DNA of 64,000 nt from an uncultured Candidatus Saccharibacteria bacterium. Its GTDB lineage: Bacteria > Patescibacteriota > Minisyncoccia > Phycocordibacterales > UBA918. The translations under genes were made by a program, and so were the position numbers. The stretch lies in the NCBI GenBank assembly GCA_964350985.1, contig CAYGLK010000003.1, forward strand, positions 21,811 through 85,810. The letters run 5' to 3'. Shown here one piece after another: positions 1 to 51,610 of the stretch (its first letter is position 1; each line of letters begins with the position of its first letter). Below the pieces are notes generated by a model. It ran no database searches and was not told where the DNA came from. It saw only the letters and a list, made by a program, of their open reading frames with translations.

Positions 1-10
1 GTTAAACTAC

Positions 11-49
11 AAAAAAGACGCTGGGGCCAAAGGCCCCAGCGTCTTTTTT
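11..49. terminator. Bidirectional rho-independent terminator hairpin (A-tract, GC stem, T-tract)
   Basis: Perfect inverted repeat aaaaaagacgctggggcc/ggccccagcgtctttttt flanked by A and T runs; lies downstream of rpsR on minus strand. Confidence 0.6.
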
Positions 50-177
50 GTTTAGAAATTGTTTTAAAAGCTTTTCCTATGAGGCGCCTAGGAGCGAAGA
101 CCGGAGACGTACTTTTGTACGATGACGGTCTGAGCGACGCAGGCAACAAAGTAGGCAGAGTTTTTAAGCAATTTCTT

Positions 178-381
178 CTAGTGTTGGATATACGGCATCA
201 GTGCCATAAACCGTGCTCGCTTCACTGATCGAGCGAAGTCTCGTTGCGCTTTTGCTGAAAAACCTGACCGTTTTCGACTAAATAGTCGTGCGTGCGGATT
301 TACAAAGTTACCCAGTTGAGTAATGTCCTTGTAATCAATGTGTTCCAATGTCGCTTTTTTGTGTAAGTTATGTTGTTCCAT
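178..381 (-). CDS. rpsR: 30S ribosomal protein S18
   Basis: 67-aa translation with S18 signature YKDITQL..FVNPHARLFSRKRSGFSAKAQR; last gene of rpsF-ssb-rpsR arrangement. Confidence 0.9.
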   Translation of the reverse strand: MEQHNLHKKATLEHIDYKDITQLGNFVNPHARLFSRKRSGFSAKAQRDFARSVKRARFMALMPYIQH

Positions 382-543
382 GTTGGTTGTTTAGCTGTTA
401 ATGTTTCAAATTATGCAGGTGCGATTTTAAAAGGCTAGATACCTAAGATACGAGGCGCAGCAAACTTTTTACGGGAGCGGTAGGTTGCTACCGTGACTGT
501 AAAAAGTGTAGCTGCAACAAAGTAGATTGGGTATATTAGTCTT

Positions 544-987
544 TTAAAATGGGATGTCCTCTGGGTTGATATCTTCCTCAGGATAATCAGGTAATACAGA
601 AGCGCTTCCTCCCTTATCTGAATCTTTCGAGTCTGTATTTGCTGGTGTACTACCGCCACCACTACTCTTAGGACCAAACTGGACTCGGTCAGCAATTACT
701 TCAGTACGGTATTGCTTCTGACCATCTTTTTCCCAGCTTCTTGTCTGCATTCTACCTTCAACATAAGCACTACTTCCCTTATTGAGCCATTTAGCGCAGT
801 TTTCAGCCTGCTTACCAAAAACTACAATATTGTGATAATCAGCTATTTCTTGTCGCTTGCCATCTCGATCATTGTAGACACGATTTGTAGCTAGCGAGAA
901 AGAACACACTTGAATTCCACTTGGGAGAGCTTTCATTTCTGGTTCTCTTGTTAGATTACCGAAGACCATTGCTTTGTTGAGGTACAT
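544..987 (-). CDS. ssb: Single-stranded DNA-binding protein
   Basis: OB-fold-like N-terminal region, Gly/Ser-rich linker and acidic C-terminal tail ending DIPF typical of bacterial SSB; sits between rpsF and rpsR. Confidence 0.88.
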   Translation of the reverse strand: MYLNKAMVFGNLTREPEMKALPSGIQVCSFSLATNRVYNDRDGKRQEIADYHNIVVFGKQAENCAKWLNKGSSAYVEGRMQTRSWEKDGQKQYRTEVIADRVQFGPKSSGGGSTPANTDSKDSDKGGSASVLPDYPEEDINPEDIPF

Positions 988-1018
988 AATTTTTGCGATT
1001 AGTGATTAGTATCTTTTA

Positions 1019-1555
1019 TTATACTGTCTCCTCTTCATCAGCGCCAACTTCTTCTTTTGCATCATCTTCTGAAGCTACTTCAGTCTCTTCTTCTACCTTT
1101 TCATCCTCTACCTCTTCTGTTTCCTCTTCAACATTTCGCACTTTACGATCTGCGATTGATTCGTGGAATTTGAAAGGATTTTGTTCTTCTACCTTTGTTA
1201 GACGTACCAATAGGTAACGTAACAAGTCTTTGTTTGAATCAAGTGATTCAGTAACCTTCTCGATACTGAGTGAATCCAAACGGAAACGAACCCAACCGAA
1301 GTAAGCACTACTAAATTTTCGATTTTTTCCTTCTAGATACTTGATAATATCGTAAGCAAGATCAAAACGTTGTGGAGCTTCTTCATCGAAGATTTCACCA
1401 CCAACTTTTGTAATAATTGCCTTGATTTTTTCAACTACTTTTTGTACTTCCCCTTCAGCAACCGTTGGAAGAACGTGGTAAGCAAATTCGTAACTAATGA
1501 ATTCTTTTTCACTAGCTGAACCTACTTCGGTCGCTGGCATATTTGTTTCTGACAT
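1019..1555 (-). CDS. rpsF: 30S ribosomal protein S6 with long acidic C-terminal tail
   Basis: S6-like N-terminal 100 aa (YEFAYHVLPT...), E/D-rich tail; operon position upstream of ssb. Confidence 0.8.
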   Translation of the reverse strand: MSETNMPATEVGSASEKEFISYEFAYHVLPTVAEGEVQKVVEKIKAIITKVGGEIFDEEAPQRFDLAYDIIKYLEGKNRKFSSAYFGWVRFRLDSLSIEKVTESLDSNKDLLRYLLVRLTKVEEQNPFKFHESIADRKVRNVEEETEEVEDEKVEEETEVASEDDAKEEVGADEEETV

Positions 1556-1642
1556 TTTGTCTCAGAACTTAATTAATAACGCAGTAACCCTAACACGAAA
1601 TAAGGCCTTATTCAAGGGCACTGGCCGTGCTAGAATAAGTGC

Positions 1643-2581
1643 ATGAATAGTGAAAAATCAAACTTAAAAGTCATCTACGGAGCTATATTCTTCGTCATTC
1701 TAGCTCTGGCTGGGTACCTACTTTATAGCAATATAATGCAGGACCGAAAAATAGATATGCTGATGGAAGAGAGAAATTACTTCTTGCTTGAAAACGCCTC
1801 CACAACTAAGTTTTTCTTAAACGAGCAAGCAAAAGCTAGTTCTACTATCAACGAGCTCTCAGAAAGACTAGCTCTAACTACTGAAGAACTAGAAGATATT
1901 GAAAGAGATTATGAACGAGAAAAGGACAAAAATGAAGAATTTGAAGACCAGATTAAAGCAATTTCAGGAACCGTCGGGGTATTAGATAAACTGTCAAAAA
2001 CTGACAAAGAGTTGCTGCAAAAATACTCACGTACTTACTTCTTGAATGAAAACTTTATTCCGATGAAGTTACGACAAATTTCCAGTAAATACGTTCTGCC
2101 TGGTAAAAAGGATCAGTATTTCCACGGTGGTGCCCTAGAGTTTTTGACTGACATGATTGATGAAGCAGAAGACGATGGTTTGGAGCTAATGATTGTCTCA
2201 GCCTATCGTTCATTTGACGAACAGTCTGCGGTGAAGGGTCAACACACTCAAGTCTATGGTACTGGAGCCAACACTTTCTCAGCTGACCAAGGATACTCTG
2301 AACACCAGCTAGGTACTACAGCAGACTTAACCAACCCTACAGTAGCTGGAGCTTTTGATAGTTTTGCCACTACCGAAGAATATGAATGGTTAAAAGATAA
2401 CGCTTATAAATTTGGGTTTGTTCTCTCCTATCCTGAAGGTAATAACTTTTACATCTTTGAGCCATGGCACTGGCGCTTCGTTGGCACCGACCTAGCTCGA
2501 GACTTAAGACGTGATGGAGTAGAATTCTACGAATGGGATCAACGAAAGATCGATGAATACTTAGTTAAAATATTTGATTAA
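1643..2581 (+). CDS. Membrane-anchored D-alanyl-D-alanine carboxypeptidase (VanY / peptidase M15B family) with coiled-coil linker
   Basis: N-terminal TM helix; C-terminal motifs SAYRSFDEQ and EHQLGTTADL/ W.WHWRF characteristic of VanY-type zinc carboxypeptidases. Confidence 0.7.
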   Translation: MNSEKSNLKVIYGAIFFVILALAGYLLYSNIMQDRKIDMLMEERNYFLLENASTTKFFLNEQAKASSTINELSERLALTTEELEDIERDYEREKDKNEEFEDQIKAISGTVGVLDKLSKTDKELLQKYSRTYFLNENFIPMKLRQISSKYVLPGKKDQYFHGGALEFLTDMIDEAEDDGLELMIVSAYRSFDEQSAVKGQHTQVYGTGANTFSADQGYSEHQLGTTADLTNPTVAGAFDSFATTEEYEWLKDNAYKFGFVLSYPEGNNFYIFEPWHWRFVGTDLARDLRRDGVEFYEWDQRKIDEYLVKIFD

Positions 2582-2587
2582 TGTAAC

Positions 2588-2629
2588 CAAAAAAGAAAAG
2601 GCCAAGCTTCGCTTGGCCTTTTCTTTTTA
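2588..2629. terminator. Bidirectional terminator hairpin between convergent genes
   Basis: aaaagaaaaggccaagc-ttcg-cttggccttttctttt perfect stem-loop. Confidence 0.6.
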
Positions 2630-2636
2630 ACATCTT

Positions 2637-3506
2637 CTAGTGCAACTCAATCCCGTACAACTTCTCAGCATTCAAAAGCAATTGTTCCCCTACTTTATAA
2701 ACTGGCATCTCTTTTAGATCAGCGATTTTTTCTACCACTTTACTCACATACCTTGGTTCACAGCGCTGACCACGAAAAGGAATTGGCGAAACAAACGGCG
2801 AATCAGTCTCGGCATGCATCAGATCTAACGGGACTGCCTTAACTATTTCCTCATAGTCTTTAGCAAAAGTAATAACGCCAGTAAAAGAAACGGTAAATCC
2901 CAGATCAAAAAACTTCTTAGCTTGTTCGTAGTTGCCGGCATAGAAGTGGATATTTCCAGGTACTTTGGCATATTGTTTTAAGATAGAGTGAACGTCAGCG
3001 TAAGCACTGTTTCCTGTAGGGCTTTTCTGTCCTGGCTTTGGATCACGGGTATGAATCATGAGCGGCAAAGAAAGTTCGTTGGCCAGCTCAACCTGAGCGA
3101 TAAAAGCAGCTTCCTGCGCGGCATAAGTCTCTTTTCCATTGTGATAATAGTCAAAACCACACTCACCTATTCCTACTACTTTCTTACTTGAGGCTGCTAG
3201 GGTGCGATAAAAATCTTTATCAAAAACTTCACCTTTAGAGCTGAAGACCTGTCCCCCAGGACCGATCTCCTTCTCGTCATGTGCCCCTGGAACAGTCTGG
3301 ATTGGATGCAGGCCAATAATAGCGAAGAGGTTACGGTGCAGGGCCGCTAATCTCACTGCTTTAGCACTGGTAGACTCTTTAGTTCCTACGTTAATAACTG
3401 CCACCCCCTCTTCAATGCATTTAGCATTTACCTCATTGTAGTCATCATTAAAAGCCGAAAGATTTAAATGAGCATGAGTATCAATGTATTGAAATTTATT
3501 TTCCAT
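2637..3506 (-). CDS. TatD-family metal-dependent hydrolase (DNase)
   Basis: N-terminal IDTHAHL motif, internal GECGFDYY and later His/Asp metal ligands typical of TatD TIM-barrel hydrolases. Confidence 0.75.
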   Translation of the reverse strand: MENKFQYIDTHAHLNLSAFNDDYNEVNAKCIEEGVAVINVGTKESTSAKAVRLAALHRNLFAIIGLHPIQTVPGAHDEKEIGPGGQVFSSKGEVFDKDFYRTLAASSKKVVGIGECGFDYYHNGKETYAAQEAAFIAQVELANELSLPLMIHTRDPKPGQKSPTGNSAYADVHSILKQYAKVPGNIHFYAGNYEQAKKFFDLGFTVSFTGVITFAKDYEEIVKAVPLDLMHAETDSPFVSPIPFRGQRCEPRYVSKVVEKIADLKEMPVYKVGEQLLLNAEKLYGIELH

Positions 3507-3518
3507 ATTTTAAAAGCC

Positions 3519-4067
3519 TTATTTAGACAGATTAAGAAAGTTTTTAATAATTGGTCTGTATGTATTGTATTCATTATAACTATGGTCATTTCCTGCTAAT
3601 TCAATAAAAGTGATGGTGTTTTGCGCGTATTGATTAATAGACTTCTTCGCAAAATCATAATTAGCAGTTGGATCATTGTTGTTATGAAGAGCAATGGCTG
3701 GACCAGGAAAATTTGATAAAGATGACCAATCCTCTTTAAAAATACCCTTATCCGCCAAATCTAAAGGAAGTCCGAAGAAGACGCACTTCGCAGGATTAAT
3801 AATGTGTTGATGTACTGCTAAAAAAGACAAAAGAGATCCTACTGATTTAGCAAAGATAAAGAATGAAGTGTCTGGAGAGGACAATTTAATTTCCTGATTT
3901 AGTTTATTAATCTCTGTTTCAAAATTAATAGACTCATTTCCAGACTCCCAATGATCGTAGTGCTGCATGTAAACAGCATCGAATAAATCACCAAATTCAG
4001 CTGCTACTTCCTCTCCCCAACTTTTGTTGCGTGGGCTATTTCCTGGAAAAATAATCAGTTTATTCAT
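3519..4067 (-). CDS. Small alpha/beta-fold serine hydrolase (YdeN/RBBP9-like)
   Basis: 182 aa, nucleophile elbow FAKSVGS (GxSxG-like), downstream Asp/His candidates; size and layout match YdeN/RBBP9 esterases. Confidence 0.45.
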   Translation of the reverse strand: MNKLIIFPGNSPRNKSWGEEVAAEFGDLFDAVYMQHYDHWESGNESINFETEINKLNQEIKLSSPDTSFFIFAKSVGSLLSFLAVHQHIINPAKCVFFGLPLDLADKGIFKEDWSSLSNFPGPAIALHNNNDPTANYDFAKKSINQYAQNTITFIELAGNDHSYNEYNTYRPIIKNFLNLSK

Positions 4068-4084
4068 AGTTTATTTATATATAA

Positions 4085-5548
4085 TTAAACTAAACGATTA
4101 AATAAATTTTCTGGCTTTTTATTTTCCTTGATAGCTTCTAGAATAATGTTTGAGGTTTCTGGCATGAATGGTTCAAGTCTCTTGGTGATCAAGAATAGTG
4201 ATTCTCTAAGAGACTTTATAATTACGCGACCTGCCTCTATATCAGTCTTAACAAGTTTGAACGGCTCAGTTTCAGTAATACACTCATCAGCTAACTGAAT
4301 ATTGTGCCAAATATTATTAACTGTAGTTTGGATATCAAATTTATCTAACGGATCTTTATAGTGTTCTGAATAAATTGACTCCCAATCTTTTTGCGCTAGA
4401 CTAGCTTCATCAAATTTCTCTTCCAAGTGAGTCTCAGCCATCTTCATGACCCGCGCAGTTAGGTTTCCTAGTCCATTAACAAGTCCTGCTGTATACCATT
4501 CATCTAACTTATCCCAGGTAATATCAGAGTCATCAAAAGGATGGACATGTCTGAGTAACAGATAACGAGTAGCTTCTGTACCATATTTTTCAATTAGCTC
4601 ATACGGAGAAATAACATTACCCAGACTCTTACTCATTTTTTGTCCGCCGCTGTTTATAAAGCCGTGGTAGACCACTTTGTCAGTAGCTTTAACGTTGGCG
4701 CTCTTGAGCATCGCCTGCCACATCACTGATTGGAATCGAACTTGATCTTTTCCTCCAAGTTGTACCACTTCCCCCTCAGTCCAAAACTTTTTAAAATCTC
4801 CTTCTTCCTCAGGCCAACCCAGAGTAGAGATATAGTTTGTTAGAGCATCAAACCAAACATACATCACTTGATTATCATCATCAGGAACAGATACACCCCA
4901 GTTTAGTCGTTCTCGCTCTCGTGAAATACTAAAGTCCTCTAAACCACCTTTTACAAAAGTAATTGCCTCTTGGCGGCGCCACTCAGGCAAGATCACTCCC
5001 GGTTCAGACAGATAGTCTTCCAAATATTTTTGATAATTTGAAAGTTTGAAGAAATAATTTTCCTCAGCAATCTCTTCGGTTGGCTTACCGTGAATCAGAC
5101 AACATTTGTTTGCATCTAGTTCACTTTCTTTGTAGAAAAGCTCACAACCAACACAATACAGACCGGTATACTGTTTTTTATAAATATCTCCAGCAGCTAA
5201 ACATCGGCGCCAAATCTCTGATGCCGCCTTCTTGTGTCCTTCGCTACTTGTCCTAATGAAGTTATCAAAAGAGAGATTCAAGCCAGTTTTAGAGTCGCTC
5301 AACTTTTTAAACTCATCGGCAAAGTGATCCACGTATTCCTGTCTACTCTTTCCTTCAGCATCAGCCTTATGAGCAATTTTTTGACCATGCTCATCCGTTC
5401 CAGTATTAAAAAAGACTTCATGTCCTTGCAGTCTCCAATATCGTGCTAAAACATCCGCCTGAAGCAATTCATAAGCAAAACCGATATGTGGATTGGCATT
5501 CACATAAGGTAATGTAGTAGTAATATAGCGGTCTTTTTTATCACTCAT
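4085..5548 (-). CDS. metG: Methionyl-tRNA synthetase (short form, no C-terminal tRNA-binding extension)
   Basis: HIGH-region PYVNANPHIGFAYE, zinc knuckle cysteines (CVGC...CCLIHG), VWFDALTNYIS and KMSKSLGNVI. Confidence 0.85.
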   Translation of the reverse strand: MSDKKDRYITTTLPYVNANPHIGFAYELLQADVLARYWRLQGHEVFFNTGTDEHGQKIAHKADAEGKSRQEYVDHFADEFKKLSDSKTGLNLSFDNFIRTSSEGHKKAASEIWRRCLAAGDIYKKQYTGLYCVGCELFYKESELDANKCCLIHGKPTEEIAEENYFFKLSNYQKYLEDYLSEPGVILPEWRRQEAITFVKGGLEDFSISRERERLNWGVSVPDDDNQVMYVWFDALTNYISTLGWPEEEGDFKKFWTEGEVVQLGGKDQVRFQSVMWQAMLKSANVKATDKVVYHGFINSGGQKMSKSLGNVISPYELIEKYGTEATRYLLLRHVHPFDDSDITWDKLDEWYTAGLVNGLGNLTARVMKMAETHLEEKFDEASLAQKDWESIYSEHYKDPLDKFDIQTTVNNIWHNIQLADECITETEPFKLVKTDIEAGRVIIKSLRESLFLITKRLEPFMPETSNIILEAIKENKKPENLFNRLV

Positions 5549-5638
5549 AGTAAAAATACTTTACCATAAGGGTGGAATAAAAGAAGGCCAGGAAGAGCGT
5601 AGCTCTTCCTGGCCTTCTTTTAAGTCATGTAATGAAGC

Positions 5639-7024
5639 CTACTTAAGATATTCCACCAAGTCAGCTATAGCTACTCTAGTCTGTTCTCCTGTATCTCGAT
5701 CACGTACAGTTACACTGTCTTTCAAAGCTGGATTCTCCTCCCCTAAAGTTTCGAAGTCAACCACAATACAAGCTGGTGTACCGATCTCATCTTGGCGACG
5801 GTATCGCTTACCGATATTTCCATTATCATCAAACTCAGCTCTCATCTCCGCTGACACTAAGGCGAACACTTCTTCGGCTTTAGCTACAAGTTCTGGACGA
5901 TTTTTTAATAGTGGAAATACAGCCACTTTGATCGGTGCTAATTTTTTTGGTAAACGTAACACTACCCGAGTCTCACCTCCCAATTCATCCTCATCATAAA
6001 ATTCGCTCAAAACTGCCAAGAAAGTACGGTCAAGTCCCACCGAAGTTTCAACAACATGAGGAATGTATTTTTCATTTGTATAAGGATCAAGATATTCTAG
6101 ACTAACACCTGAAAAAGTTTGATGCTGGGTTAAATCATAATTTCCTCTAGCATGTACTCCTTCAAGTTCTTTAAACCCAAATGGGAAATTGTATTCAATA
6201 TCGAATGCAGCTTTAGCATAAAACACTAAGTTTTCATGCTCATGCCATCGTAAATTTTCCGCCTTAAATCCAAGGTCTAAGTAATACTGCCAACGCTTCT
6301 CTTTCCAAATATTATAGAGTTCCATCTCCTGGTCTGGAGCTGTGAACATTTGCATTTCCATTTGTTCAAATTCTCGCTTACGGAAAATATACTGTCGTGG
6401 GGCAATTTCATTACGAAAAGCTTTTCCGATTTGAGCGATACCAAATGGAACCTTAACTCGAGTACTATCGACTACATTTTTAAAATTTAAATAAATGCCT
6501 TGGCAAGTCTCTCCACGCAGATAAGTGGGTTCTTTTGACCAGTCAGAAGAAAAGTTCCCTAAATTAGTCTGTGCCAGCAGATTAAAATTAACTACTTTAC
6601 CAAATTCTTTTTGCCCACACTTTGGGCAAACTAAAGACTCACGATTTTGATCAAAAATATTATTGATTTCTTCAATAGACATTTTTTCGTCAGCAAAAAC
6701 ATCTACTTCTTCAAGTAAATGGTCTGCTCTAGAACGAGTGTGGCACTTCTGACATTCAACTAAGGGATCAGAAAAACCACCGACATGGCCAGAGGCTTCC
6801 CATACTTTTGGATGAGTAACTATCGCAGAATCTAAACCGACCACATTTCTTTCCGTCTGAACCATCGCCTTCCACCAAGCAGCTTTAATGTTGTTAGCTA
6901 ACTCAACACCATAAGGACCGTAATCAAAAGATCCTACAAATCCCCCGTAAATATCACTACCTGGAAACACAAAACCACGCCGCTTACAAAGTGAAACAAT
7001 TTTTTCCATGCTGTCTTTTATCAT
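5639..7024 (-). CDS. glyQS: Glycyl-tRNA synthetase, dimeric class II (alpha2 type)
   Basis: N-terminal RRGFVFPGSDIYGG, class II motif 2 AFRNEIAPRQYIFRKREFEQMEMQ, C-terminal anticodon-binding domain. Confidence 0.85.
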   Translation of the reverse strand: MIKDSMEKIVSLCKRRGFVFPGSDIYGGFVGSFDYGPYGVELANNIKAAWWKAMVQTERNVVGLDSAIVTHPKVWEASGHVGGFSDPLVECQKCHTRSRADHLLEEVDVFADEKMSIEEINNIFDQNRESLVCPKCGQKEFGKVVNFNLLAQTNLGNFSSDWSKEPTYLRGETCQGIYLNFKNVVDSTRVKVPFGIAQIGKAFRNEIAPRQYIFRKREFEQMEMQMFTAPDQEMELYNIWKEKRWQYYLDLGFKAENLRWHEHENLVFYAKAAFDIEYNFPFGFKELEGVHARGNYDLTQHQTFSGVSLEYLDPYTNEKYIPHVVETSVGLDRTFLAVLSEFYDEDELGGETRVVLRLPKKLAPIKVAVFPLLKNRPELVAKAEEVFALVSAEMRAEFDDNGNIGKRYRRQDEIGTPACIVVDFETLGEENPALKDSVTVRDRDTGEQTRVAIADLVEYLK

Positions 7025-7042
7025 AATTCAGTATAATTTATA

Positions 7043-9013
7043 TTATTCCTCTACTACCCCATTACCTTTAGAAAAGCCAAACTCAGTCGATAGCTCACTA
7101 GTAATTTGAAACGCTTCGGCAGTGATTGTCGTACCAGTAAATCGATCTGTAGCCCGAACCTGCTGATTATTAATCACTACTGGAGTTCTATCAACTTGAG
7201 TCACACTTGGCAAGAGTCCGACTTGAAACTGTAGTTTTTTACTACTTTTTGTATCCATAGTCCCAATATTCCATCTGATCTGCTTTGAGCTTGGATTATA
7301 CTCCACAGTACCTGGTCCATCATAATTATCAAGCCAGGTAACGTATTGAGGTAATGTAGTAGTCAAAACAGTCTCAGTCGCATCATTTGCCCCTGCCACC
7401 ACCTCCAAGGTAGCTGTATAAGTAGTTGTCTTATTAGCTTGTGGTGGAATCGGCCCGGCATCTTCAAACAGACCGTCTCCATGACCTAGCTGAGATCTAG
7501 TGATTATCCTAGACTCAAATTTTGCCTCAGCTACAATCGTACCGACAATCTCCTCAGTAGCTCCTGGCTCGTTTAATCTTCGAGCAAAGATTTTAGTTGA
7601 GACATCAAAGGAAGCCGTCTGTTGATTTGGGTCTGGTTTAACTTTAAAAGTAAATTCACGACTATCTCCTGGCTTAACTTCTGAAAGATTTGGTTCACCT
7701 GAAACTTCCCAAGTGATTTTTTGAGCATTTGAATCATAGAAGCCAGTTGGCACACTCACTAAATTGTCTCTGATGACATTCCCTTTTGGAGATACCTCTA
7801 CCCGCATATCATAAATAGATTCGTTTAAAGTATTCTTGACCAAGATCGATACCTCAGCATCCTCATCAAAATCTACTACTGTTGCCCCGTCTTTGTCTCC
7901 GTTAATATCTACAGAGACATCAATAAAAGGTCTCTCGATTGTATAGTCAAGTGTCGATTTAGTGAGAACAGATCCCATAATAAACTGATTATCTGACCTA
8001 GGTGTACCCGCAGTTAGCTGAACCTCTCCTCTTTCGTCAGCTTCTCCGTTCACTAGACCTCTGACAGTAATTGTTTCTGAAGAGTCAGGAGCGATCTCTT
8101 TTATCAGCCATTCGTTTTGGCCGTAAGCTGGCTCTGGATCAGAACTGATAAAAGAAAAACTATTAGGATAATCAGCACTGACAAGAATGTTTCTTTGCAC
8201 TGCAGAAGCGTTTGATTGTAAGGTAATTTTTAATTCCAACTCTTGTCCGGAGGAGACCTTACTTAATGAAGTTGCCCTAACAACCAGCGGTGAAGAATTT
8301 ATGGTAATTTTTATCGGTTCTGCATCTTTGAAGAAAGTTCCGTTTGAACCAACCACTCGATACTCTATAGAAGCTTTAATTTCCTTTTCTTCGTTTTCTT
8401 CACCAAATAAAATAATATCCACTGGTATATTTACGGCTTCTCCGGGACCAATGTCGGATACTGGAATTCTTTCTTCAAATAAGTCTCGCGCTTGTTCGTC
8501 ACTTGTCTTGGTTCCGCTTGGGTAATTTAAGATTAAGTTTGCTGACTCGATTTTAACTGTGTTCTGGTTTGAGACACTGATTTGCAAAGTTACTCCCTCT
8601 CCAGCTGCCACAGCCGTCGGCGCATTCAGGTCAATACTTATATTTCGAGTAGATATTTGGTTGGTACCAAAAAATAAATATATGCTGGAAATAATTGCCA
8701 CCACAATAAAAACCGCTAAGCTTGCAAGCAAAATAATCAGACGATATGGGCGTTTCTTTTTTACCTCAGGTCGCTCTACCGAATAATCAACAGCACCTGG
8801 ATTTGTTTCTTCGGTAGAAGCCGGATTATCAGAAGGTACTGGTTCAGGTTGAGGTGTCAGGACCGGCCTAGGAGCGACATCGCTCCAGCCGCGAGAAACA
8901 TCTACATCAGAAGCAGATAACTCATGGCGATCTTCTTCTTTATCAAGAAAATCTCGCTCATAAAGCCTTTTTCTTAAGTCATCTATATTTTTCTGATCTC
9001 TAATACCTGACAT
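7043..9013 (-). CDS. Large membrane-anchored hypothetical protein (Pro-rich cytoplasmic N-terminus, single TM, long repeat-containing extracytoplasmic region)
   Basis: 656-aa ORF with one hydrophobic helix (LIILLASLAVFIVVAIISSIYLFF) and beta-rich repeats; no recognisable catalytic motif. Confidence 0.5.
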   Translation of the reverse strand: MSGIRDQKNIDDLRKRLYERDFLDKEEDRHELSASDVDVSRGWSDVAPRPVLTPQPEPVPSDNPASTEETNPGAVDYSVERPEVKKKRPYRLIILLASLAVFIVVAIISSIYLFFGTNQISTRNISIDLNAPTAVAAGEGVTLQISVSNQNTVKIESANLILNYPSGTKTSDEQARDLFEERIPVSDIGPGEAVNIPVDIILFGEENEEKEIKASIEYRVVGSNGTFFKDAEPIKITINSSPLVVRATSLSKVSSGQELELKITLQSNASAVQRNILVSADYPNSFSFISSDPEPAYGQNEWLIKEIAPDSSETITVRGLVNGEADERGEVQLTAGTPRSDNQFIMGSVLTKSTLDYTIERPFIDVSVDINGDKDGATVVDFDEDAEVSILVKNTLNESIYDMRVEVSPKGNVIRDNLVSVPTGFYDSNAQKITWEVSGEPNLSEVKPGDSREFTFKVKPDPNQQTASFDVSTKIFARRLNEPGATEEIVGTIVAEAKFESRIITRSQLGHGDGLFEDAGPIPPQANKTTTYTATLEVVAGANDATETVLTTTLPQYVTWLDNYDGPGTVEYNPSSKQIRWNIGTMDTKSSKKLQFQVGLLPSVTQVDRTPVVINNQQVRATDRFTGTTITAEAFQITSELSTEFGFSKGNGVVEE

Positions 9014-9041
9014 GTTTTTTCTAGTATATCATCAAAAATAA

Positions 9042-9620
9042 CTACAAATGACTACTTTCTTGGGCTTTTGTGACTATACTTTCTATTTTTTTGACTAAAG
9101 TAGGGTCATTAATTACATCCAGGTCAGCTAGATCATTCAGAAGAACTTCCTTGGGTAGGGATTTTTGGTCAACATAGCCCAACATCGACAAAAAACGCAG
9201 TTGGATAAAGGCGTCCAGAAACTTGCGATCATTATTTTTAAGCGCTATTTGATCTAAAGCACTGATCATAAAATCATATAATTCAGCCGAAGCTTCTTCT
9301 CCACGAATAAACCGCCTGAGTAACTTATAGATAGCCACTACACTTCCCCTTGTCTCTCTATCTGTTGCTAAAGAAAAGTCATTCTTCTCAGATTCAACAC
9401 TACCAATACGCCAACCTGATTTTCCTTTGATCAAGGAAACTCGGATACGCGAAAAATCTTGGAGCGCATAACGCTGTTTAGACACCTCTTCTCTAACACT
9501 TTTTGCATTAGCAAAAAGCATTCCCGCTTCTCTGGTAAATAAGAGAAAAGATCTATCTGAAGTATTTTGATCGAAACTACCACAGACAACCGCTTCAGTT
9601 GTATAGGTAACGTAAGACAT
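9042..9620 (-). CDS. recO: DNA repair protein RecO (short form)
   Basis: N-terminal OB-fold region pattern (EAVVCGSFDQNTSDRSFLLFTREAGMLFANAKSVRE) resembling RecO; 192 aa, lacks C-terminal zinc-finger region. Confidence 0.45.
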   Translation of the reverse strand: MSYVTYTTEAVVCGSFDQNTSDRSFLLFTREAGMLFANAKSVREEVSKQRYALQDFSRIRVSLIKGKSGWRIGSVESEKNDFSLATDRETRGSVVAIYKLLRRFIRGEEASAELYDFMISALDQIALKNNDRKFLDAFIQLRFLSMLGYVDQKSLPKEVLLNDLADLDVINDPTLVKKIESIVTKAQESSHL

Positions 9621-12600
9621 CTAAAGCTTCTTTATTGAGACAACAAAAATTGTCTCTCCAGCAGTCACCTTCTCGCCTTCAGTTGTGCCGTACGTAATTT
9701 TTTCGGCCCCAACATTTTTCATGATCATCTCCTTAAAGTTTTCTAGATTTTGCTGTCCTGCTTCAGTTGTATCAACGGTCATTTCAATTCGATCTTGAGG
9801 TTCAAGTCCAGCTTTCTTTCGACTCTCTTGGACTGCTCGCATAAATTCACGAACTTCACCTTCAGCTTTCAGCTCTGGTGTGATTTCTAGATCTAGCACG
9901 ACTCTTTCTTTCTGCTCCGACTTAAAGACAACTGCTTTAACATTAATTTCATCAGCAACAATAGTGGCGTAATCCGGAGCCAGTTCTATATTAAGACTAA
10001 GTTCTGACAAAGGTTGTCTAACTTTTACATTAGCTTTAGTTCTCGCTTCAAGCGCTACAGTAACAAACTCTCGCACTAGACTCATTTCACCTAGAACGAC
10101 AGAGTCCGCTTCAGTTTGTGCTGGCCAAGCCATCAAGTGAACGCTTTCAGGTGCCCCCTCTGCTTTTACCGCTTGGTAGAGATACTCAGCATAGAAAGGC
10201 ATAGATGGAGCCATAACAACTGCTAGCTGCTCAAGTAGGTAGCGTAAGGTTCCAAGAGCCAGTGCTTTGTCTTCAGTGTCATCCCCCTTAAGTCTTTCTC
10301 TTGAACGACGTAAGTACCAGACTGATACATCTTCAATAAAATCAGCGACTGGTCTAGTGGCTTTATCAAGTTCGTATTTTTTATATCCTTTAGTTGAATC
10401 TAGAATTAGTTGATTTAGACGCGCTAAAATCCATCGATCAAGTACGTTCGGCGAATCATTTTTAGCCTCAGTACCATCAGCGAACAACTCATACATGGCT
10501 AAAACATTATGTAGTCGTCCGATATTTTTCCGTTGTACATCAAGAGCCTCTTTTTCAGAGAAGTTAATGTCTTCTGCTCGAACAATCGGTGAAGTAAGTA
10601 AGTAATAACGCATCGAATCAACACCAACTCTATCCGCTAACTCCATTGGGTCAGGATAATTGCGTAGAGACTTACTCATCTTTTTACCATCTTCGGCCAA
10701 GACCAAACCATTTACGATCACATTTTCAAATGGAGATTTTCCAAATAATGCAGTTCCTAAAACTAACATTGAGTAAAACCAACCGCGGGTTTGATCTAAA
10801 CCTTCAGCAATAAACTGCGCTGGGAAATATTCTTCCAAGAATTTATCTGCATTTTCAAACGGATAGTGTAGCTGACCATATGGCATTGAACCACTTTCAA
10901 ACCAACAGTCGAAAACATCTGGGACACGCTCTAGTTTAATTCCGTCAGTATCTACCAAAAGTAACTCATCAATATATGGACGATGGAAATCTAACTCATA
11001 GTTATCATTGTGTGGTAGTGGACTAAAGTTAATTTGCTTTGTTTCAGCATTTTTTAGATAGCCCAACTTCTTTAACTCAATCATTTTGTCGTAATCTGCT
11101 CCACTAGCTACTGTCTCAACAGCAAATAGTGAGCTACCGTGACCAACGATTAAAGTGTTTTCGTTTTTATTGTTGGTCTCATAGTCATAGAGAAATTCTC
11201 CAACTCGTCTAATCAAATCATAACGACTTTCGCCTCCGGAAAACTGCTTAGTGAATTTTTCTTCTTCTGAAGCAAATTGTGAGTTAAAGTCATTCCAAGT
11301 TCTTCCTTCAAATTCAGTCCCGACTTTAAATTCCTGCATTCTTGGCTCAGCTACTACAGCCTCTTTAGGCAAGCCCAGATTTAGAGCGATAATTTCAGCT
11401 GTCTGTCTGGCTCGCTGCATTCCAGAATGAACGATCTTGGTAATATTTTTTGAAGTTAATTCATTTGCGGTTGCCTCTGCTTGCTTAACACCACTTTCAG
11501 TTAGCGGATTATTCTCGTCAGGAATAGAGTCGATCAAACCGGTTATATTACTTTCTGCCTCAGCGTGACGCATAATGGTATAAGTGTTTCCACTCTTCGG
11601 TATATATTCTTGGATCTCTGAGAGTGAGCCAAAAACCTTGTAGTCACCAGTCTTTGGGTTTTTCCAGATCGGTAATGGTGCTCCCCAATAACGCTGACGA
11701 GACACCGCCCAATCACGTGCTCCTTCAAGCCATTTTCCAAAACGGTTCTTTCCAACATTCTCTGGAGTCCAATTAACTTTAGTGTTTGCTTCAACTAACC
11801 CATCTTTTATTTTAGGTACGTTAACAAACCACGATGTAGTCGCGTAGTTTAAAAGTGGAGTCTCACAACGCCAACAGTGCGGATAGCTGTGTGTGATATT
11901 TTCTTTCTTGAGTATTTTTCCAGTAGTTTGAAGTGCTTTTAATATTTCAATATCAGCATCTTTATGGTCCACACCAGAAGTATCATCATCTTTTGGCTTT
12001 ACTAACTGCCCGGCAAAATCAGTCACAAAATCTAGGAAGTGCCCGGCAGTATTTACGTGGTGCACAATCGGCACATTGTTGGCTTGAGCCAGCTTCATGT
12101 CATCGTCACCATATGCTGGAGCAATATGCACCGCCCCAGTTCCGTCCTCACCTACTTCGACATAATCAGCATGCCAAATTTTCCAACCATTTTCTTTTCC
12201 TTCAATATCTTGTTTAGCTAAGTAATCAAATGGCGGCAAGTATGACTGCCCAACTAGAGATGACCCTTTCATTTCTTCCACCACCTCGTAAGCCAGGTCG
12301 CCTAACTGACTCAATCTCCCTTTAGCTAGGATGTAGTTCTCTGTTTGAGTGTCAGTTTCGACCTTCACTTTTACATAATCAATCTCGTTATGAACTGCCG
12401 CGGCGATATTTCCCGGCAAAGTCCAAGGTGTAGTAGTCCAGACAAGTAGACTTGTATCAGTCACTTTCCCCTGATCATCAAGTAGTGGAAGCTTTACTGT
12501 GACAGCAATATCTTTAATATCTTTATAACCTTGATTTACTTCAAAGTTACTCAAAGTTGTCTCACAGCGCGGACACAAGTGCATCGTCTTAAAACCTTCA

Positions 12601-13163
12601 AAGACCAAACCTTTTTTATGTAGTTCGGCAAAAACCCACCAAACACTTTCGGTATAGGTGCTATCCATAGTCTTGTAGTCATCCTCCATATCAACCCAAC
12701 GACCCATTCTCGGTACTACCTTTTTCCAGTAGTCTGCGTACTCCATCACCATTCCCCGGGCAGCTTCGTTAAAATTCTTAACACCGTAAGTTTCAATATC
12801 TCGCTTTGTAGCTAAGCCTAGCTTTTTCTCAATCAAATTCTCCAGTGGCAAGCCATGACAGTCCCAGCCCCACTTTCGTTTTACTCGGTAACCATTCATC
12901 GTCCAAAAACGAGAAACAGTATCTTTCATTGTTCCAGCGAGGATATGTCCATAGTGAGGCGTCCCCGTTGCAAACGGTGGACCATCATAAAAAACATAAT
13001 CACCTTTTGACTCAGCTCCCGCTGGTGTAGCTACGGTTTTATTAAAAATATCTTTCTCCTCCCAAAATTTTTGTATTTCTTCTTCACGAAGAGCCACTTC
13101 TGATTTTGAAACCTCTGGTACTACTTCGACAGAGTCGTTTTCACGACCGGTTTGTTTAGACAT
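9621..13163 (-). CDS. ileS: Isoleucyl-tRNA synthetase (type 2-like) carrying an inserted histidine-phosphatase domain
   Basis: HIGH motif PHYGHIL, WDCHGLP, editing-domain TTPWTLP, SRQRYWGAPLP, KMSKSLRNYPDP; 1180 aa with about 200 extra residues (aa 527-725) between SRQRYWG and the DVFDCWFESG block. Confidence 0.9.
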   Translation of the reverse strand: MSKQTGRENDSVEVVPEVSKSEVALREEEIQKFWEEKDIFNKTVATPAGAESKGDYVFYDGPPFATGTPHYGHILAGTMKDTVSRFWTMNGYRVKRKWGWDCHGLPLENLIEKKLGLATKRDIETYGVKNFNEAARGMVMEYADYWKKVVPRMGRWVDMEDDYKTMDSTYTESVWWVFAELHKKGLVFEGFKTMHLCPRCETTLSNFEVNQGYKDIKDIAVTVKLPLLDDQGKVTDTSLLVWTTTPWTLPGNIAAAVHNEIDYVKVKVETDTQTENYILAKGRLSQLGDLAYEVVEEMKGSSLVGQSYLPPFDYLAKQDIEGKENGWKIWHADYVEVGEDGTGAVHIAPAYGDDDMKLAQANNVPIVHHVNTAGHFLDFVTDFAGQLVKPKDDDTSGVDHKDADIEILKALQTTGKILKKENITHSYPHCWRCETPLLNYATTSWFVNVPKIKDGLVEANTKVNWTPENVGKNRFGKWLEGARDWAVSRQRYWGAPLPIWKNPKTGDYKVFGSLSEIQEYIPKSGNTYTIMRHAEAESNITGLIDSIPDENNPLTESGVKQAEATANELTSKNITKIVHSGMQRARQTAEIIALNLGLPKEAVVAEPRMQEFKVGTEFEGRTWNDFNSQFASEEEKFTKQFSGGESRYDLIRRVGEFLYDYETNNKNENTLIVGHGSSLFAVETVASGADYDKMIELKKLGYLKNAETKQINFSPLPHNDNYELDFHRPYIDELLLVDTDGIKLERVPDVFDCWFESGSMPYGQLHYPFENADKFLEEYFPAQFIAEGLDQTRGWFYSMLVLGTALFGKSPFENVIVNGLVLAEDGKKMSKSLRNYPDPMELADRVGVDSMRYYLLTSPIVRAEDINFSEKEALDVQRKNIGRLHNVLAMYELFADGTEAKNDSPNVLDRWILARLNQLILDSTKGYKKYELDKATRPVADFIEDVSVWYLRRSRERLKGDDTEDKALALGTLRYLLEQLAVVMAPSMPFYAEYLYQAVKAEGAPESVHLMAWPAQTEADSVVLGEMSLVREFVTVALEARTKANVKVRQPLSELSLNIELAPDYATIVADEINVKAVVFKSEQKERVVLDLEITPELKAEGEVREFMRAVQESRKKAGLEPQDRIEMTVDTTEAGQQNLENFKEMIMKNVGAEKITYGTTEGEKVTAGETIFVVSIKKL

Positions 13164-13391
13164 AAAAATTTATTTTATTTCCAAAATAATTCACATTGAA
13201 TGAATTTTGCGACGCCAAGTAAAATTGTACGAGCCGTACTATCTGTACGGTGAGTATAAATTTTATGCTAAGCAACAAAAAACTACGTCAATTTTAGTTA
13301 TTTTGGTATGTATATCAGACATATAATAAGGACGTATGTATCAGACACGCTTAAACAGCATACCATGAAATACAGTTGGCGGTAGAGGCTT

Positions 13392-14081
13392 CTAAAATCT
13401 TAGTGTATCCAAAATTTCTCTAGCTTCTTCGGTAATAAAAAGTGGAGTAGCACTATGATCCAAGAAAGAGTTATAAAAAATTATACTTAAAGTGCCTCCT
13501 TTATAGTCATATTTTATAGTTAGAGCACATCCAGTTGCTGCACACAAAGTAACTGACCAGGCCAATCTACCATTTATTGTTACTTTTTCAGCAGACACAA
13601 CCTCACCTCCCCAACTATCTATAAGCTCCTGCGTCATCACATTGTCCGATAGGTGAATTCCAAAAGAATAAAACGGACCATCACAAACGAGGTGTCCTTC
13701 TGTTAATCTCAGACCATCGCAGAAAGAAAAGTATTCAGCATCTGGAGTCACTCTATTTTCATTAGGAACTGTGTGAATAAAATCTTCAGTACCATCTGAG
13801 ACCTCAAAAGTACTTGGAAAACTTATGGAAATTCCATGTTCTTCGCTCGTGAATGTTCTATATTCTTCTGGAATGGGTTTATCTACAATAACTTCCTTTA
13901 TCACTTCTTTAACAACTACATTGTCAACTGTAACAATTTTTTCTGGCGCATAAGTATAACCAATCCAACCCCCAATAAAAGGTAGTGTGACTAAAAGAAC
14001 CATTGCTAGATATTTTGATAAAGGAGTAACTTTTAAAAGAGGGTTCTTTGAAGCTTCCGTTATATTATTTTCTGGTTCCAT
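13392..14081 (-). CDS. Hypothetical secreted/membrane-anchored protein
   Basis: ORF with N-terminal TM/signal helix (YLAMVLLVTLPFIGGWIGY); start trimmed to internal Met so as not to overlap argS; no known motif. Confidence 0.4.
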   Translation of the reverse strand: MEPENNITEASKNPLLKVTPLSKYLAMVLLVTLPFIGGWIGYTYAPEKIVTVDNVVVKEVIKEVIVDKPIPEEYRTFTSEEHGISISFPSTFEVSDGTEDFIHTVPNENRVTPDAEYFSFCDGLRLTEGHLVCDGPFYSFGIHLSDNVMTQELIDSWGGEVVSAEKVTINGRLAWSVTLCAATGCALTIKYDYKGGTLSIIFYNSFLDHSATPLFITEEAREILDTLRF

Positions 14082-14127
14082 AATATTAATATTTTTTTCT
14101 ATTTTATTTACAATATACACCCAACCC

Positions 14128-15813
14128 CTACATCTTCTCTGGAGCTTTGATCGCCAAGACCCAAAGACCATTTTTTAGCGTCTGTTTAACTGCTTCTGCC
14201 AAAGCTATCTTATATGGTGCGTAAGTGTCAGTCGGGTCAGCAATTTTTTCCCTAGCGTAAAAAGAGTTAAAGGCAGAAGCCAGCTCTGTTAGATAGACCG
14301 TTACTTTATGTGGTGCCCTTTCAGCCAAAGCCTCCTCAACTACTTCCGGAAATTGATAAACTAATTTTTCTACTTCATAAGTAGCTTCTGGAGCTAGCTC
14401 AATACTACTTTTAAGTCCAACATCAGCTGCTTTATCTAACACGCTACAAATACGAGCGTGGGTATACTGCAGATAAGGACCTGAATCCCCTTCAAAAGAT
14501 AGAGCTTTCTCACGATCGAACACAGTGTCCTGTAAAATACTGCCGCGCAAAGTAGTGTATTTAATTGCTGCCAATGCAACAGCGCGGGCCAGTTCTTGAT
14601 CTGGTGCCGCCTCTCCCCCTTCTGCCATTTTGGCCAAAGCAGCCTCAGCTACTTCATCAATAAAATCAATGGCTGAAATAACATTACCAGTCCTTGATGA
14701 CATTTTGCCAGTTGTGAGTCGGACCATTCCATGACCGATATGCTCAGTTTTTTCAGATAGTTCCGGGTAAATAAAACTTGAGACTTTTTTAAGAACTTTA
14801 AAATACTCTCCGACTTCATTACCAGTACAGATAACCGACCGATCATAGTGTCCAAGTCTTTCCTCTTTTAACTTAAACAAAGCCAACTCTTTTGCTTCAT
14901 ATGTTGGTAGTCCTTCTTTATTTAAAAATACTCGCGTATGTAGACCGTACTCCTCTCCAGCAAAAATATACGCCCCGTCACTTTGCTTGAAAACATCAGT
15001 GTGTTCTAAAACCAAGTTCTTGCCCGATTCACTAACTTCACTTTCAAAGAAATAGCTATCAAATTTAGTATCAGTAATTTGATATATGGTTTCAAAATAT
15101 TCCAAGGAAACCTTTTTTCCAGCATCATAAAGTTCGTTTATCTCACTATCAGTACGATCGTAAGTTTTTTTGTTTATCACTCTTATTTCTGCTTGGGCCG
15201 TTTCATTCTCTTTATAAGCTGTAGCTCCTAGAGCGTAAGCTTTGCCAAGTTCACGAGCAGAAAAATCACTGGTTGGTTCAATTCCTAATTGTTTCATTCC
15301 CCACAACGAACTAGCTACATGAAGGCCGACGTCACCTTGATAGCTTATTCTTTTTGTATCAGCTCCATTCATCATGAAGAGTCTAGCGATACTCTCACCA
15401 ACAGCATTGGTAAATAAGTGTCCAATATGAAATTCTTTAAATGGATTGGGGTCTGTGTATTCCACCAAGACCGTCTTATTTTGCCACGAAATATTTTTAC
15501 CCCAATCCTCTCCCTGCTTTAGACTTCGGAAAATCTCAGTGGTAAAAAAGTCACGAGTTAAATAAAAATTAATGAATCCCGGGCCAGCGATCTCAGTCTT
15601 GTCGACATATTCAATTTGTTCAAAAAGAGCAGCCACCAAATCTTCAGCCACAGTTCTCGGTGCCTTACCTAACTTACTCGCCAAAACCATCGCTACATTA
15701 CAAGCGTAATCACCATTGGTGTTATCGGCTGGATGATCAATAGTAAATTCCACCTCAGGCCAACCAAGTTGGACCAGGGCTTCCTTAACAGCTTCATAGA
15801 TAACTTTTTTCAT
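14128..15813 (-). CDS. argS: Arginyl-tRNA synthetase
   Basis: N-terminal Add-1 domain, HIGH-like FHIGHL, 561 aa class I layout, C-terminal DALR-type anticodon-binding helix bundle. Confidence 0.85.
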   Translation of the reverse strand: MKKVIYEAVKEALVQLGWPEVEFTIDHPADNTNGDYACNVAMVLASKLGKAPRTVAEDLVAALFEQIEYVDKTEIAGPGFINFYLTRDFFTTEIFRSLKQGEDWGKNISWQNKTVLVEYTDPNPFKEFHIGHLFTNAVGESIARLFMMNGADTKRISYQGDVGLHVASSLWGMKQLGIEPTSDFSARELGKAYALGATAYKENETAQAEIRVINKKTYDRTDSEINELYDAGKKVSLEYFETIYQITDTKFDSYFFESEVSESGKNLVLEHTDVFKQSDGAYIFAGEEYGLHTRVFLNKEGLPTYEAKELALFKLKEERLGHYDRSVICTGNEVGEYFKVLKKVSSFIYPELSEKTEHIGHGMVRLTTGKMSSRTGNVISAIDFIDEVAEAALAKMAEGGEAAPDQELARAVALAAIKYTTLRGSILQDTVFDREKALSFEGDSGPYLQYTHARICSVLDKAADVGLKSSIELAPEATYEVEKLVYQFPEVVEEALAERAPHKVTVYLTELASAFNSFYAREKIADPTDTYAPYKIALAEAVKQTLKNGLWVLAIKAPEKM

Positions 15814-33809: not shown

Positions 33810-33885
33810 GGCGGCTATGGTATAAAGGTTATTACTGGAGTTTGTGGAACTCTCAATTCGGGTTCAATTCCCGGTAGCCGCCCCA
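33810..33885 (+). tRNA. tRNA-His (anticodon GUG) with encoded G-1 and CCA
   Basis: Hand-folded cloverleaf: acceptor GCGGCTA/TAGCCGC, anticodon loop TTGTGGA (GTG), T-arm TCGGG-TTCAATT-CCCGG, discriminator C, extra 5' G pairing with C73 as in bacterial tRNA-His. Confidence 0.75.
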
Positions 33886-38272: not shown

Positions 38273-38670
38273 ATCACTAGAGAGCCCAGAAATACAAAAA
38301 ACTTTTGGGCTACAGGCTTTACATTTCGATTTTTAAATACTTGCTTTAGTAGATAGTAGCTAATTAAAAGTGACAGCAAGTATGACGGAAGGTTTTGCAA
38401 AAAAGTAGCGTAGGCTGTGTGTATTAGGAAGTCATTCATGTGTTAAAGATTATTTAATAATCCCAGCGTAGACTTCAGGTACACAAAGCCCGCTACCAGG
38501 AGGGACGAGTCCCCTACACAAGTTTCCCTGTGCAACGAAAGCAACGCCCTGATAACGGGTTCTCTGTTGCTTTCGATTTGCGACCATACCGCTTGCTTAG
38601 CCAGCGGGTTAGGTCATTTATATTCAGTTGTACACTCTATGCTAGCATATAAAACAAATATAACTACCAT

Positions 38671-51016: not shown

Positions 51017-51610
51017 ATGAAAAAACTGCTTCTTATCGGACCTTGGCTTGCTGACTTTGGACACGGAATACTATTAACCATTCTGCTCCTTATACTTTTC
51101 GATGTTGAACCGAGCATCTTGTATTTTCTTCTAGGTATTATTTTTTCTATTCTCCCTGATCTGGATGGAATTACAGAATTTTTGCGTTACAAAAAAATAG
51201 ACGCCGGTGAGCACGGTGACCATCGGGACGGACTACATTACCCGCTCGCATGGATTGCTGTTGGCATTGTGTTTATACTCATCAAACCCTTTATAGGGAC
51301 ACTGTTCACACTTTGTGTTGTGGTGCATTTCATAAATGACAGCTGGGGTACTGGGTGGGGCATTGAATGGCTCTGGCCATTCAATCATCGTAGCTACAAG
51401 TTGTTCTCTCGCAACAATGTTGATGCTGATGTGACACTTTCTCAACTTGTTACATTATGGGACCCGCAAAGCAAGAACGACACAGCAAAGCGTCTAGGTA
51501 ATAGAAACTGGGTTGACGATATATATGGACATGTAACCAAAATATCTGTAGTGGAGTACGGCACATTTATACTCGCATTGTTTGCCTTAGCTATTTATCT
51601 TTCTCTATGA
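51017..51610 (+). CDS. Membrane protein, possibly YdjM/DUF457-like membrane-bound hydrolase
   Basis: 4-5 TM helices with conserved His/Asp positions (HGDHRDGLHYPLAW); start at ATG after the -10 box. Confidence 0.3.
   Translation: MKKLLLIGPWLADFGHGILLTILLLILFDVEPSILYFLLGIIFSILPDLDGITEFLRYKKIDAGEHGDHRDGLHYPLAWIAVGIVFILIKPFIGTLFTLCVVVHFINDSWGTGWGIEWLWPFNHRSYKLFSRNNVDADVTLSQLVTLWDPQSKNDTAKRLGNRNWVDDIYGHVTKISVVEYGTFILALFALAIYLSL

Follow-up and report, generated by a model that had tools for sequence, protein, structure and literature searches.

How a complete histidine phosphatase (HP) comes to reside within the catalytic domain of an aminoacyl-tRNA synthetase (aaRS), and what it might do there, is the question raised by a 64,000-nucleotide stretch of DNA from an uncultured Candidatus Saccharibacteria bacterium (GenBank assembly GCA_964350985.1, contig CAYGLK010000003.1, positions 21,811 to 85,810 of the forward strand). 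The whole of this stretch, hereafter the window, was analysed, and all coordinates are those of the window. Its ileS gene (9621..13163, minus strand) encodes an isoleucyl-tRNA synthetase (IleRS) of 1180 amino acids (aa), within which residues 527-725, encoded at 10989..11585 on the same strand, are predicted to fold as an HP domain according to the Pfam family PF00300, AlphaFold2 modelling, Foldseek structure comparison and a profile search of solved proteins. The aaRSs are among the most conserved enzymes, and bacterial cases in which the catalytic domain houses another complete enzyme are, to our knowledge, very rare. The evidence presented here points to the phosphatase probably being an active and dedicated functional partner of IleRS, in either a nested or an adjacent form.

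Judged from its sequence, the host synthetase is intact. The open reading frame (ORF) at 9621..13163 is the only long one to cover the insert and runs without interruption, and the encoded protein scores 857 bits against the NCBIfam model TIGR00392 (ileS), for which the cut-off is 621.4, identifying it as an IleRS. A Pfam scan of the whole protein returned tRNA-synt_1 (expectation value, E, 6.9e-137), Anticodon_1 and DUF5915 in addition to His_Phos_1 (PF00300), the last of which splits the synthetase match in two. Since the best solved relatives are the cytosolic and Thermus thermophilus IleRS, the protein is considered to be a type-2 (eukaryote- or archaea-like) enzyme. The full-length AlphaFold2 model has a mean predicted local distance difference test (pLDDT) value of 90.4 and a predicted template modelling (pTM) score of 0.84. 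Identity with MupA or MupB was rejected, scores against NF000257 and NF000258 being 645 and 673 bits where 1900 is required; the window protein is a related type-2 IleRS but neither of these alleles.

The HIGH, KMSKS and editing motifs expected of an IleRS are all present. The HIGH signature reads HYGH (aa 70-73; 12945..12956, this and all subsequent features of the gene being on the minus strand) and is surrounded by G61, P62, P63 and P69, each of which is at least 90% conserved among 28 full-length homologues, whilst the KMSKS signature (aa 828-832; 10668..10682) retains invariant K828, S830 and K831. The WTTTPWT motif of the editing domain, which comprises connective peptide 1 (CP1), lies at aa 242-248 (12420..12440) and is nearly invariant, indicating that the editing domain has been retained; a second editing motif, GTGAVHIAPAYGDDD, occupies aa 341-355. 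Ahead of the insert, the SRQRYWGAPLP block (aa 488-498; 11670..11702) leads into connective peptide 3 (CP3), with R489, R491, W493 and P498 conserved at 99-100%. Host sequence resumes with the HRPYID strand of CP3 (aa 727-732; 10968..10985), in which H727 and D732 are invariant and which aligns with DLHRPYID of insert-less IleRS, and the DVFDCWFESG block (aa 749-758; 10890..10919) then begins the second half of the Rossmann fold.

The initial annotation of this locus, made from the sequence alone, described an overlong IleRS with a phosphatase placed in the catalytic-domain connective region, after the SRQRYWG block and ahead of the DxWFESG block. The length is borne out by comparison with insert-less relatives, which have 978 aa, and alignment to a reference structure and to insert-less relatives allows the position to be refined to CP3. 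Specifically, alignment with human cytosolic IleRS (9w01) pairs query residue 520 with chain residue 491 and query residue 725 with chain residue 498, such that approximately 200 residues occupy the place of about 6, whilst insert-less IleRS from related metagenomic loci (n = 13) have approximately 21-24 residues at the same point. The catalytic domain of Candida albicans IleRS is divided into a CP core, CP1 (editing), CP2 (residues 427-461) and CP3 (residues 473-534; PMC7191050), and since chain residues ∼491-498 fall within the last of these limits the insertion point is assigned to CP3. The insert follows a hairpin and a helix (VFGSLSEIQEY) and stands ahead of the strand DFHRPYID. Residues 527-725 correspond exactly to positions 10989-11585, as annotated; within them the Pfam match extends over aa 530-697 (11073-11576), and the folded domain covers approximately aa 525-712. 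The motifs quoted in the annotation were likewise all located, including RHAEAESN (aa 532-539) and VGHGSS (aa 673-678) within the insert in addition to the three host blocks given above. At 0.389, the guanine-plus-cytosine (GC) content of the insert does not stand out from that of its flanks (0.426 and 0.408).

Profile, catalytic motifs and alpha/beta fold all place the insert among the branch-1 histidine phosphatases, as had been proposed. The match to PF00300 (E 3.6e-29) reaches 102 bits where 21.7 would suffice, and extends from position 3 to 169 of the 194 in the profile; the 199-aa insert alone gives an E of 1e-30. An AlphaFold2 model of the isolated domain has a pLDDT of 93.4 and a pTM of 0.90, and a Foldseek search of the PDB with this model matched 4ij6, 1h2e and 4qih with a probability of 1.00, TM scores of about 0.7-0.79 and sequence identities of 22-26%. 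The top-ranking structures comprised the Hydrogenobacter phosphoserine phosphatase PspA (4ij6), mycobacterial glucosyl-3-phosphoglycerate phosphatase (GpgP), PhoE, a riboflavin-pathway phosphatase and CobC, and a family profile searched against PDB sequences returned PspA (3e-29), PhoE (7e-28) and CobC (8e-24).

Conservation was assessed in 67 insert-bearing IleRS that share 30-54% identity within the insert. Both residues of the R532-H533 pair (11565..11570) are present in every sequence; they belong to the RHG-type motif, which reads RHAE in the window as opposed to the superfamily consensus RHGE. The histidine of this motif is the phospho-accepting nucleophile of the superfamily, a role that is predicted here for H533. 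The second phosphate-binding arginine, R584 (11412..11414), the second catalytic histidine, H675 of VGHGSS (11139..11141), and E645 of a GGES motif in the cap region (11229..11231) are also 100% conserved, with E611, the predicted general acid (11331..11333), and R653 at 97% and N539 at 91%. Since the catalytic residues have been kept in 67 divergent sequences and the fold is modelled with confidence, the inserted domain is likely to be catalytically competent. In the full-length model both of the linkers that join the phosphatase to IleRS have pLDDT values of 93-95, which suggests that the domain is rigidly docked on the synthetase as opposed to being borne on a floppy linker.

The same model shows a cap segment of two short helices (aa 612-645). 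Given the presence of this cap, and the small substrates of the nearest relatives, the substrate is most likely to be a small phosphomonoester rather than a folded protein. As candidates, the initial annotation had put forward a nucleotide- or tRNA-related substrate, or a regulatory function. A specific substrate could not be transferred from any characterised family, since no NCBIfam equivalog model for a phosphatase reaches its cut-off with the insert, which gives sub-threshold matches only, to CobC, archaeal dPGM, PspA, GpmB and SixA. Phosphoglycerate mutase was accordingly rejected (TIGR01258, 16.3 versus a cut-off of 81.7; NF038349, 71.3 versus 225), as were the alpha-ribazole phosphatase CobC (TIGR03162, 77.5 versus 162.9; NF011580, 52.8 versus 250) and, despite PspA being the best solved relative, phosphoserine phosphatase (NF045917, 54.9 versus 350). 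SixA was rejected on the grounds of score (TIGR00249, 37.7 versus 74.5), of a match limited to the first ∼75 residues, and of the presence of a cap, which the minimal SixA fold lacks.

The distribution of the nested form was examined with a HMMER search, in which the insert alone was compared with 1.84 billion representatives of clusters formed at 50% identity. This returned 5666 matches at E<1e-3 and 315 at E<1e-10, and in at least 99 of the 149 best clusters the phosphatase was flanked by IleRS sequence on one or both sides (both in 69), with full-length insert-bearing IleRS ranging from 1127 to 1266 aa. A word-index search with the insert alone retrieved only 8 proteins, an exhaustive search being necessary to reveal the family. 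Additionally, a scan of GTDB, with one genome per species, identified 488 genomes with a relative; the same in-frame and contiguous junction of N-terminal part, phosphatase and C-terminal part was found in all 80 of the best species loci retained, amongst which are the closed chromosomes CP060229.1 and OY969557.1. All 80 are from Patescibacteria (Kaiser-, Zambryski-, Nomura-, Taylor-, Niyogi- and Yonathbacteria, Paceibacterota and Minisyncoccia), and the best match shares 69% identity in the insert and approximately 80% in the N-terminal part, the latter with Kaiserbacteria. These identities mark the window as part of a Paceibacteria genome resembling Kaiserbacteria, one that is absent from the species representatives scanned. 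The search for the same insertion that the initial annotation had advised therefore revealed a widespread and old architecture as opposed to a one-off event.

One further close relative of the HP-bearing ileS, on a related contig (L001; ENA ERZ25039499 contig_36308, 1-8757), is frameshifted but has the same junction and 61% identity in the insert, and lies 2-4 kb from genes for a phage capsid, protease and portal. A link to phage or defence, considered because of the capsid and portal genes, was rejected: a scan of viral contigs returned relatives of only 26-31% identity and no HP-bearing IleRS, and PADLOC returned no defence match.

The insert also has free-standing relatives, proteins of approximately 190 aa that share with it an N-x-Y-x-x-x-R-H-G start and the catalytic residues. 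One of these (P0002), which is 31% identical to the insert, is encoded on six related contigs in the order argS, a small gene, HP, ileS and recO, where its stop codon directly adjoins the start of an insert-less IleRS of 978 aa. The order in the window is equivalent, with argS (14128..15813, minus strand; Pfam tRNA-synt_1d, DALR_1 and Arg_tRNA_synt_N) upstream of ileS, and a recO-like gene (9042..9620, minus strand; RecO_N and RecO_C) directly downstream. The recO neighbour recurs at loci that encode the phosphatase separately, and argS is present likewise in L082. With regard to the small gene, a 194-aa PaaX_M-domain protein is encoded between argS and the HP gene in loci L082-L087, and an unrelated 259-aa ORF (13392-14171) occupies that position in the window; its product has no Pfam match and is predicted to contain a membrane helix.

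A scan of JGI metagenomes with an alignment of the free-standing members yielded 470 relatives, the best 80 of which were retained and their loci classed by means of stop-to-stop ORFs and tblastn. The phosphatase was a separate ORF directly upstream of ileS, on the same strand and mostly with a gap of less than 100 nucleotides, in 42 loci, and was inserted in CP3 in 27-28 loci; 10 contigs were too short to classify, and no locus had room for ileS yet was without it. Thus, among the best 80 of the 470 metagenomic relatives the phosphatase family is tied to ileS at 70 of 70 determinable loci. By comparison, argS was upstream of ileS in 24 of the 32 loci with sufficient sequence (75%), and recO was detectable downstream in 51 of 109 (at least 47%), such that gene order around ileS is generally conserved, although less strictly than the link between HP and ileS.

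As to origin, the initial annotation had drawn attention to a second histidine phosphatase in the window and suggested that one of the two copies was recruited from the other. The second gene (52781-53425, plus strand) is indeed an HP gene (PF00300, E 4.9e-18), situated between genes for an EamA transporter (51607-52455) and a VTT/DedA-type membrane protein (53635-54324). The proposed derivation is not supported, however, since BLASTP between the two gives an E of 1 and the gene falls outside all of the IleRS-linked phosphatases in a neighbour-joining tree; by sequence comparison, the closest free-standing relatives of the insert belong to another family, the genes for which stand just upstream of ileS in related organisms. 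The HIGH region of IleRS occurs in two flavours (PPFATG..PHYGH and PPTANG..HH), each of which is found with both architectures. A neighbour-joining tree of IleRS requires at least three switches between separate and inserted forms, and in the corresponding phosphatase tree the inserted forms are nested among the separate ones, bootstrap support being weak in both cases. Since capture is mechanistically simpler than precise excision, the nested form probably arose by capture of the upstream neighbour gene into a variable surface loop.

Evidence for recurrence was obtained independently of the trees. Two IleRS (P0103 and P0138) have a second HP at another point in CP3, after the HRPYID-like strand, and HP domains were identified also in valyl-tRNA synthetase (ValRS): a 1538-aa protein (P0137) has one at the homologous CP3 point and a second before DWCISRQ, and a 1161-aa ValRS fragment (P0013) has four, three in tandem at the CP3 point and one earlier. 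ValRS and IleRS are ancient paralogues, and so the insertions in the two enzymes are considered to be separate events. On this sequence evidence, class Ia synthetases have acquired histidine phosphatases on repeated occasions. HP-bearing ValRS are rare; a word-index search with the ValRS phosphatase alone gave no match, and the same type of search with the flanks added only two ValRS-HP fragments (P0167 and P0168). In the 1538-aa ValRS, whose flanks share 83% identity with a ValRS fragment from Candidatus Gracilibacteria, approximately 300 residues (∼600-900) between the first phosphatase (aa 448-596) and DWCISRQ are without a Pfam assignment. Free-standing proteins of two HP domains (404-430 aa; P0085, P0135 and P0136) were observed also.

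These observations would be accommodated by a working type-2 IleRS with a complete PhoE/PspA/CobC-like phosphomonoesterase permanently housed in CP3, the phosphatase of Patescibacteria being maintained either as this nested domain or as a ∼190-aa gene that abuts the 5' end of an insert-less ileS. In such an enzyme R532, R584 and H675 would bind the terminal phosphate of the substrate, and the phosphate would move to H533, with E611 serving as the general acid, prior to its release. Tethering would render the phosphatase equimolar with IleRS and hold it rigidly beside the synthetic site. On this reading the phosphatase would be functionally coupled to aminoacylation; removal of pyrophosphate or AMP as products would not explain a restriction to IleRS and ValRS. 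A number of points weigh against dedicated partnership. The insert diverges faster than its host, with a median identity of 39% versus 54% in the N-terminal part and 46% in the C-terminal part, and the conserved synteny of ileS means that adjacency of HP and ileS could, on its own, be historical. The clade of IleRS-linked phosphatases has a bootstrap value of 43/100, such that any number or direction of switches read from the trees is tentative, and the analysis of each scan was confined to its best 80 loci. Moreover, removal of CAAD, a membrane anchor without enzyme activity that lies outside the catalytic domain of cyanobacterial class I aaRS, hardly changed the catalysis of ValRS (PMC4893482). 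Several of these points, together with the tolerance of CP3 to change, evident from topology that differs among the Candida, Thermus (zinc-binding) and Staphylococcus aureus IleRS structures (PMC7191050), and the failure of the viral-contig scan and PADLOC to reveal a defence, phage or RNA link, would suit a passenger domain, i.e. a phosphatase with an unrelated housekeeping job, on a sugar phosphate or phospho-amino acid for example, retained by frozen gene order and a permissive CP3 whilst both enzymes work independently. This explanation seems rather unlikely, given that the tie to ileS at every determinable locus exceeds that of argS or recO, that fused and adjacent architectures both exist, that independent insertions have occurred elsewhere in IleRS and in its paralogue, and that rigid docking of the domain is predicted.

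A rival explanation is repair or regulation in cis, whereby the phosphatase would strip phosphate from a serine of the KMSKS loop or, alternatively, a terminal phosphate from the acceptor end of tRNA-Ile, rendering the tRNA chargeable again. The first version would reverse an inactivation of the type imposed by HipA and HipT kinases, which phosphorylate GltX and TrpS at a serine that is reportedly in or beside a KMSKS-type motif. PspA, the nearest relative of known structure, is a phosphoserine phosphatase, the association is confined to IleRS and ValRS as opposed to aaRS generally, and, if the published CP3 limits are applied (PMC7191050), CP3 would follow Rossmann strand 4 and KMSKS strand 5, placing the two side by side. 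However, neither a kinase nor a partner that damages tRNA was identified, the active site with its cap is closer in kind to those of small-molecule phosphatases than to SixA-like protein phosphatases, and the separate-gene form would have to act in trans. The cis reading is considered quite improbable. The broader proposal, that the nested phosphatase constitutes a third, cis-acting synthetase site for repair or anti-toxin purposes that class Ia synthetases of Patescibacteria have repeatedly recruited, is also considered improbable. A purely structural or phosphate-binding extension of CP3, with affinity for the RNA backbone for example, is very unlikely indeed: other aaRS inserts do act structurally, as CAAD does (PMC4893482), and the domain is modelled with confidence as packed against the enzyme body, but retention of the nucleophile, both arginines, the general acid and the second histidine, in the insert-bearing sequences and the free-standing relatives alike, is the pattern expected of catalysis. 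An assembly chimera or frameshift joining separate IleRS and phosphatase genes can be given practically no weight in view of the uninterrupted ORF, the identical junction in 80 of 80 GTDB genomes, closed chromosomes included, and the ordinary GC content of the insert. An active phosphatase dedicated to IleRS is therefore retained as the preferred explanation.

The closest precedent in terms of evolutionary mode is provided by the CAAD-bearing aaRS (ValRS, IleRS, LeuRS, GluRS and others), in which a free-standing family has likewise been captured recurrently inside monomeric class I synthetases, in independent events and at different points, with the host remaining functional, and where the GluRS fusion derives from a neighbouring gene (PMC4893482). 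The present case differs in that the captured module is a complete enzyme with conserved catalytic residues, is inside CP3, belongs to Patescibacteria and exists also as an ileS-adjacent gene; the Pfam scan of the whole window IleRS revealed no CAAD/CURT1 domain, and the resemblance is one of evolutionary mode only. PhoE, PspA (iPSP1), CobC and GpgP (best matches 4ij5/4ij6, 1h2e/1ebb, 6nru and 4qih) share with the insert the fold, catalytic residues, length of approximately 200 aa and short cap, but are free-standing, of low identity as noted above, and have equivalog cut-offs that the insert does not reach. Amongst fusion proteins, the actinobacterial RNase H/acid phosphatase (NF005567, PRK07238; Rv2228c-type) also joins a CobC-like domain to a nucleic-acid enzyme, the purpose of its coupling being likewise unclear, although there the fusion is end to end and to a different partner, and the model gives the window protein 55 bits where 326 are required. 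6-phosphofructo-2-kinase/fructose-2,6-bisphosphatase, which was among the structure and profile matches, is similarly a histidine phosphatase fused to a nucleotide-binding enzyme, but by a C-terminal fusion that provides opposing activities on one metabolite, and no such metabolite is evident for IleRS. Finally, a curated IleRS with an additional enzymatic domain is represented by NF040702 (ileS_w_GNAT); the domain is a different one, the window protein scoring 313.9 bits versus 1999 and having no acetyltransferase in the Pfam scan. We know of no curated model for HP-bearing IleRS.

The initial annotation was aware of no described aaRS-histidine phosphatase fusion; a full-text literature search likewise found no paper on one, and the fusion goes unmentioned in a 2026 preprint about the evolution of IleRS domains. 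Synthetases with inserted accessory domains are known, and it is the enzymatic content of this insert that is, as far as can be told, new. Public pipelines annotate the HP-bearing proteins merely as isoleucyl- or valyl-tRNA synthetase, with the consequence that the phosphatase will be invisible in metabolic reconstructions, or else may be miscounted as phosphoglycerate mutase. The pattern as a whole argues for an unrecognised phosphate-dependent step tied to the charging of isoleucine (and valine) tRNA in bacteria with minimal genomes; at the least, the phosphatase insert represents a new accessory module of class Ia synthetases.

A number of other features of the window were recorded. Four aaRS genes are encoded on the minus strand within 12 kb (4085-15813), comprising, in addition to ileS and argS, genes for a methionyl-tRNA synthetase (MetRS; 4085-5548) and a class II aaRS with an HGTP anticodon domain (5639-7024), and interleaved with these are recO and a gene for a 656-aa DUF11 surface-type protein. 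A LOOT RNA (Rfam RF03000) was identified at 38501-38615 on the minus strand, matching the full model with a score of 67.8 bits versus a gathering score of 46.4. The single tRNA gene of the window, tRNA-His (GTG), is located at 33811-33885 on the plus strand, where its 3' part overlaps the listed start of an ORF on the opposite strand (33853-35481).

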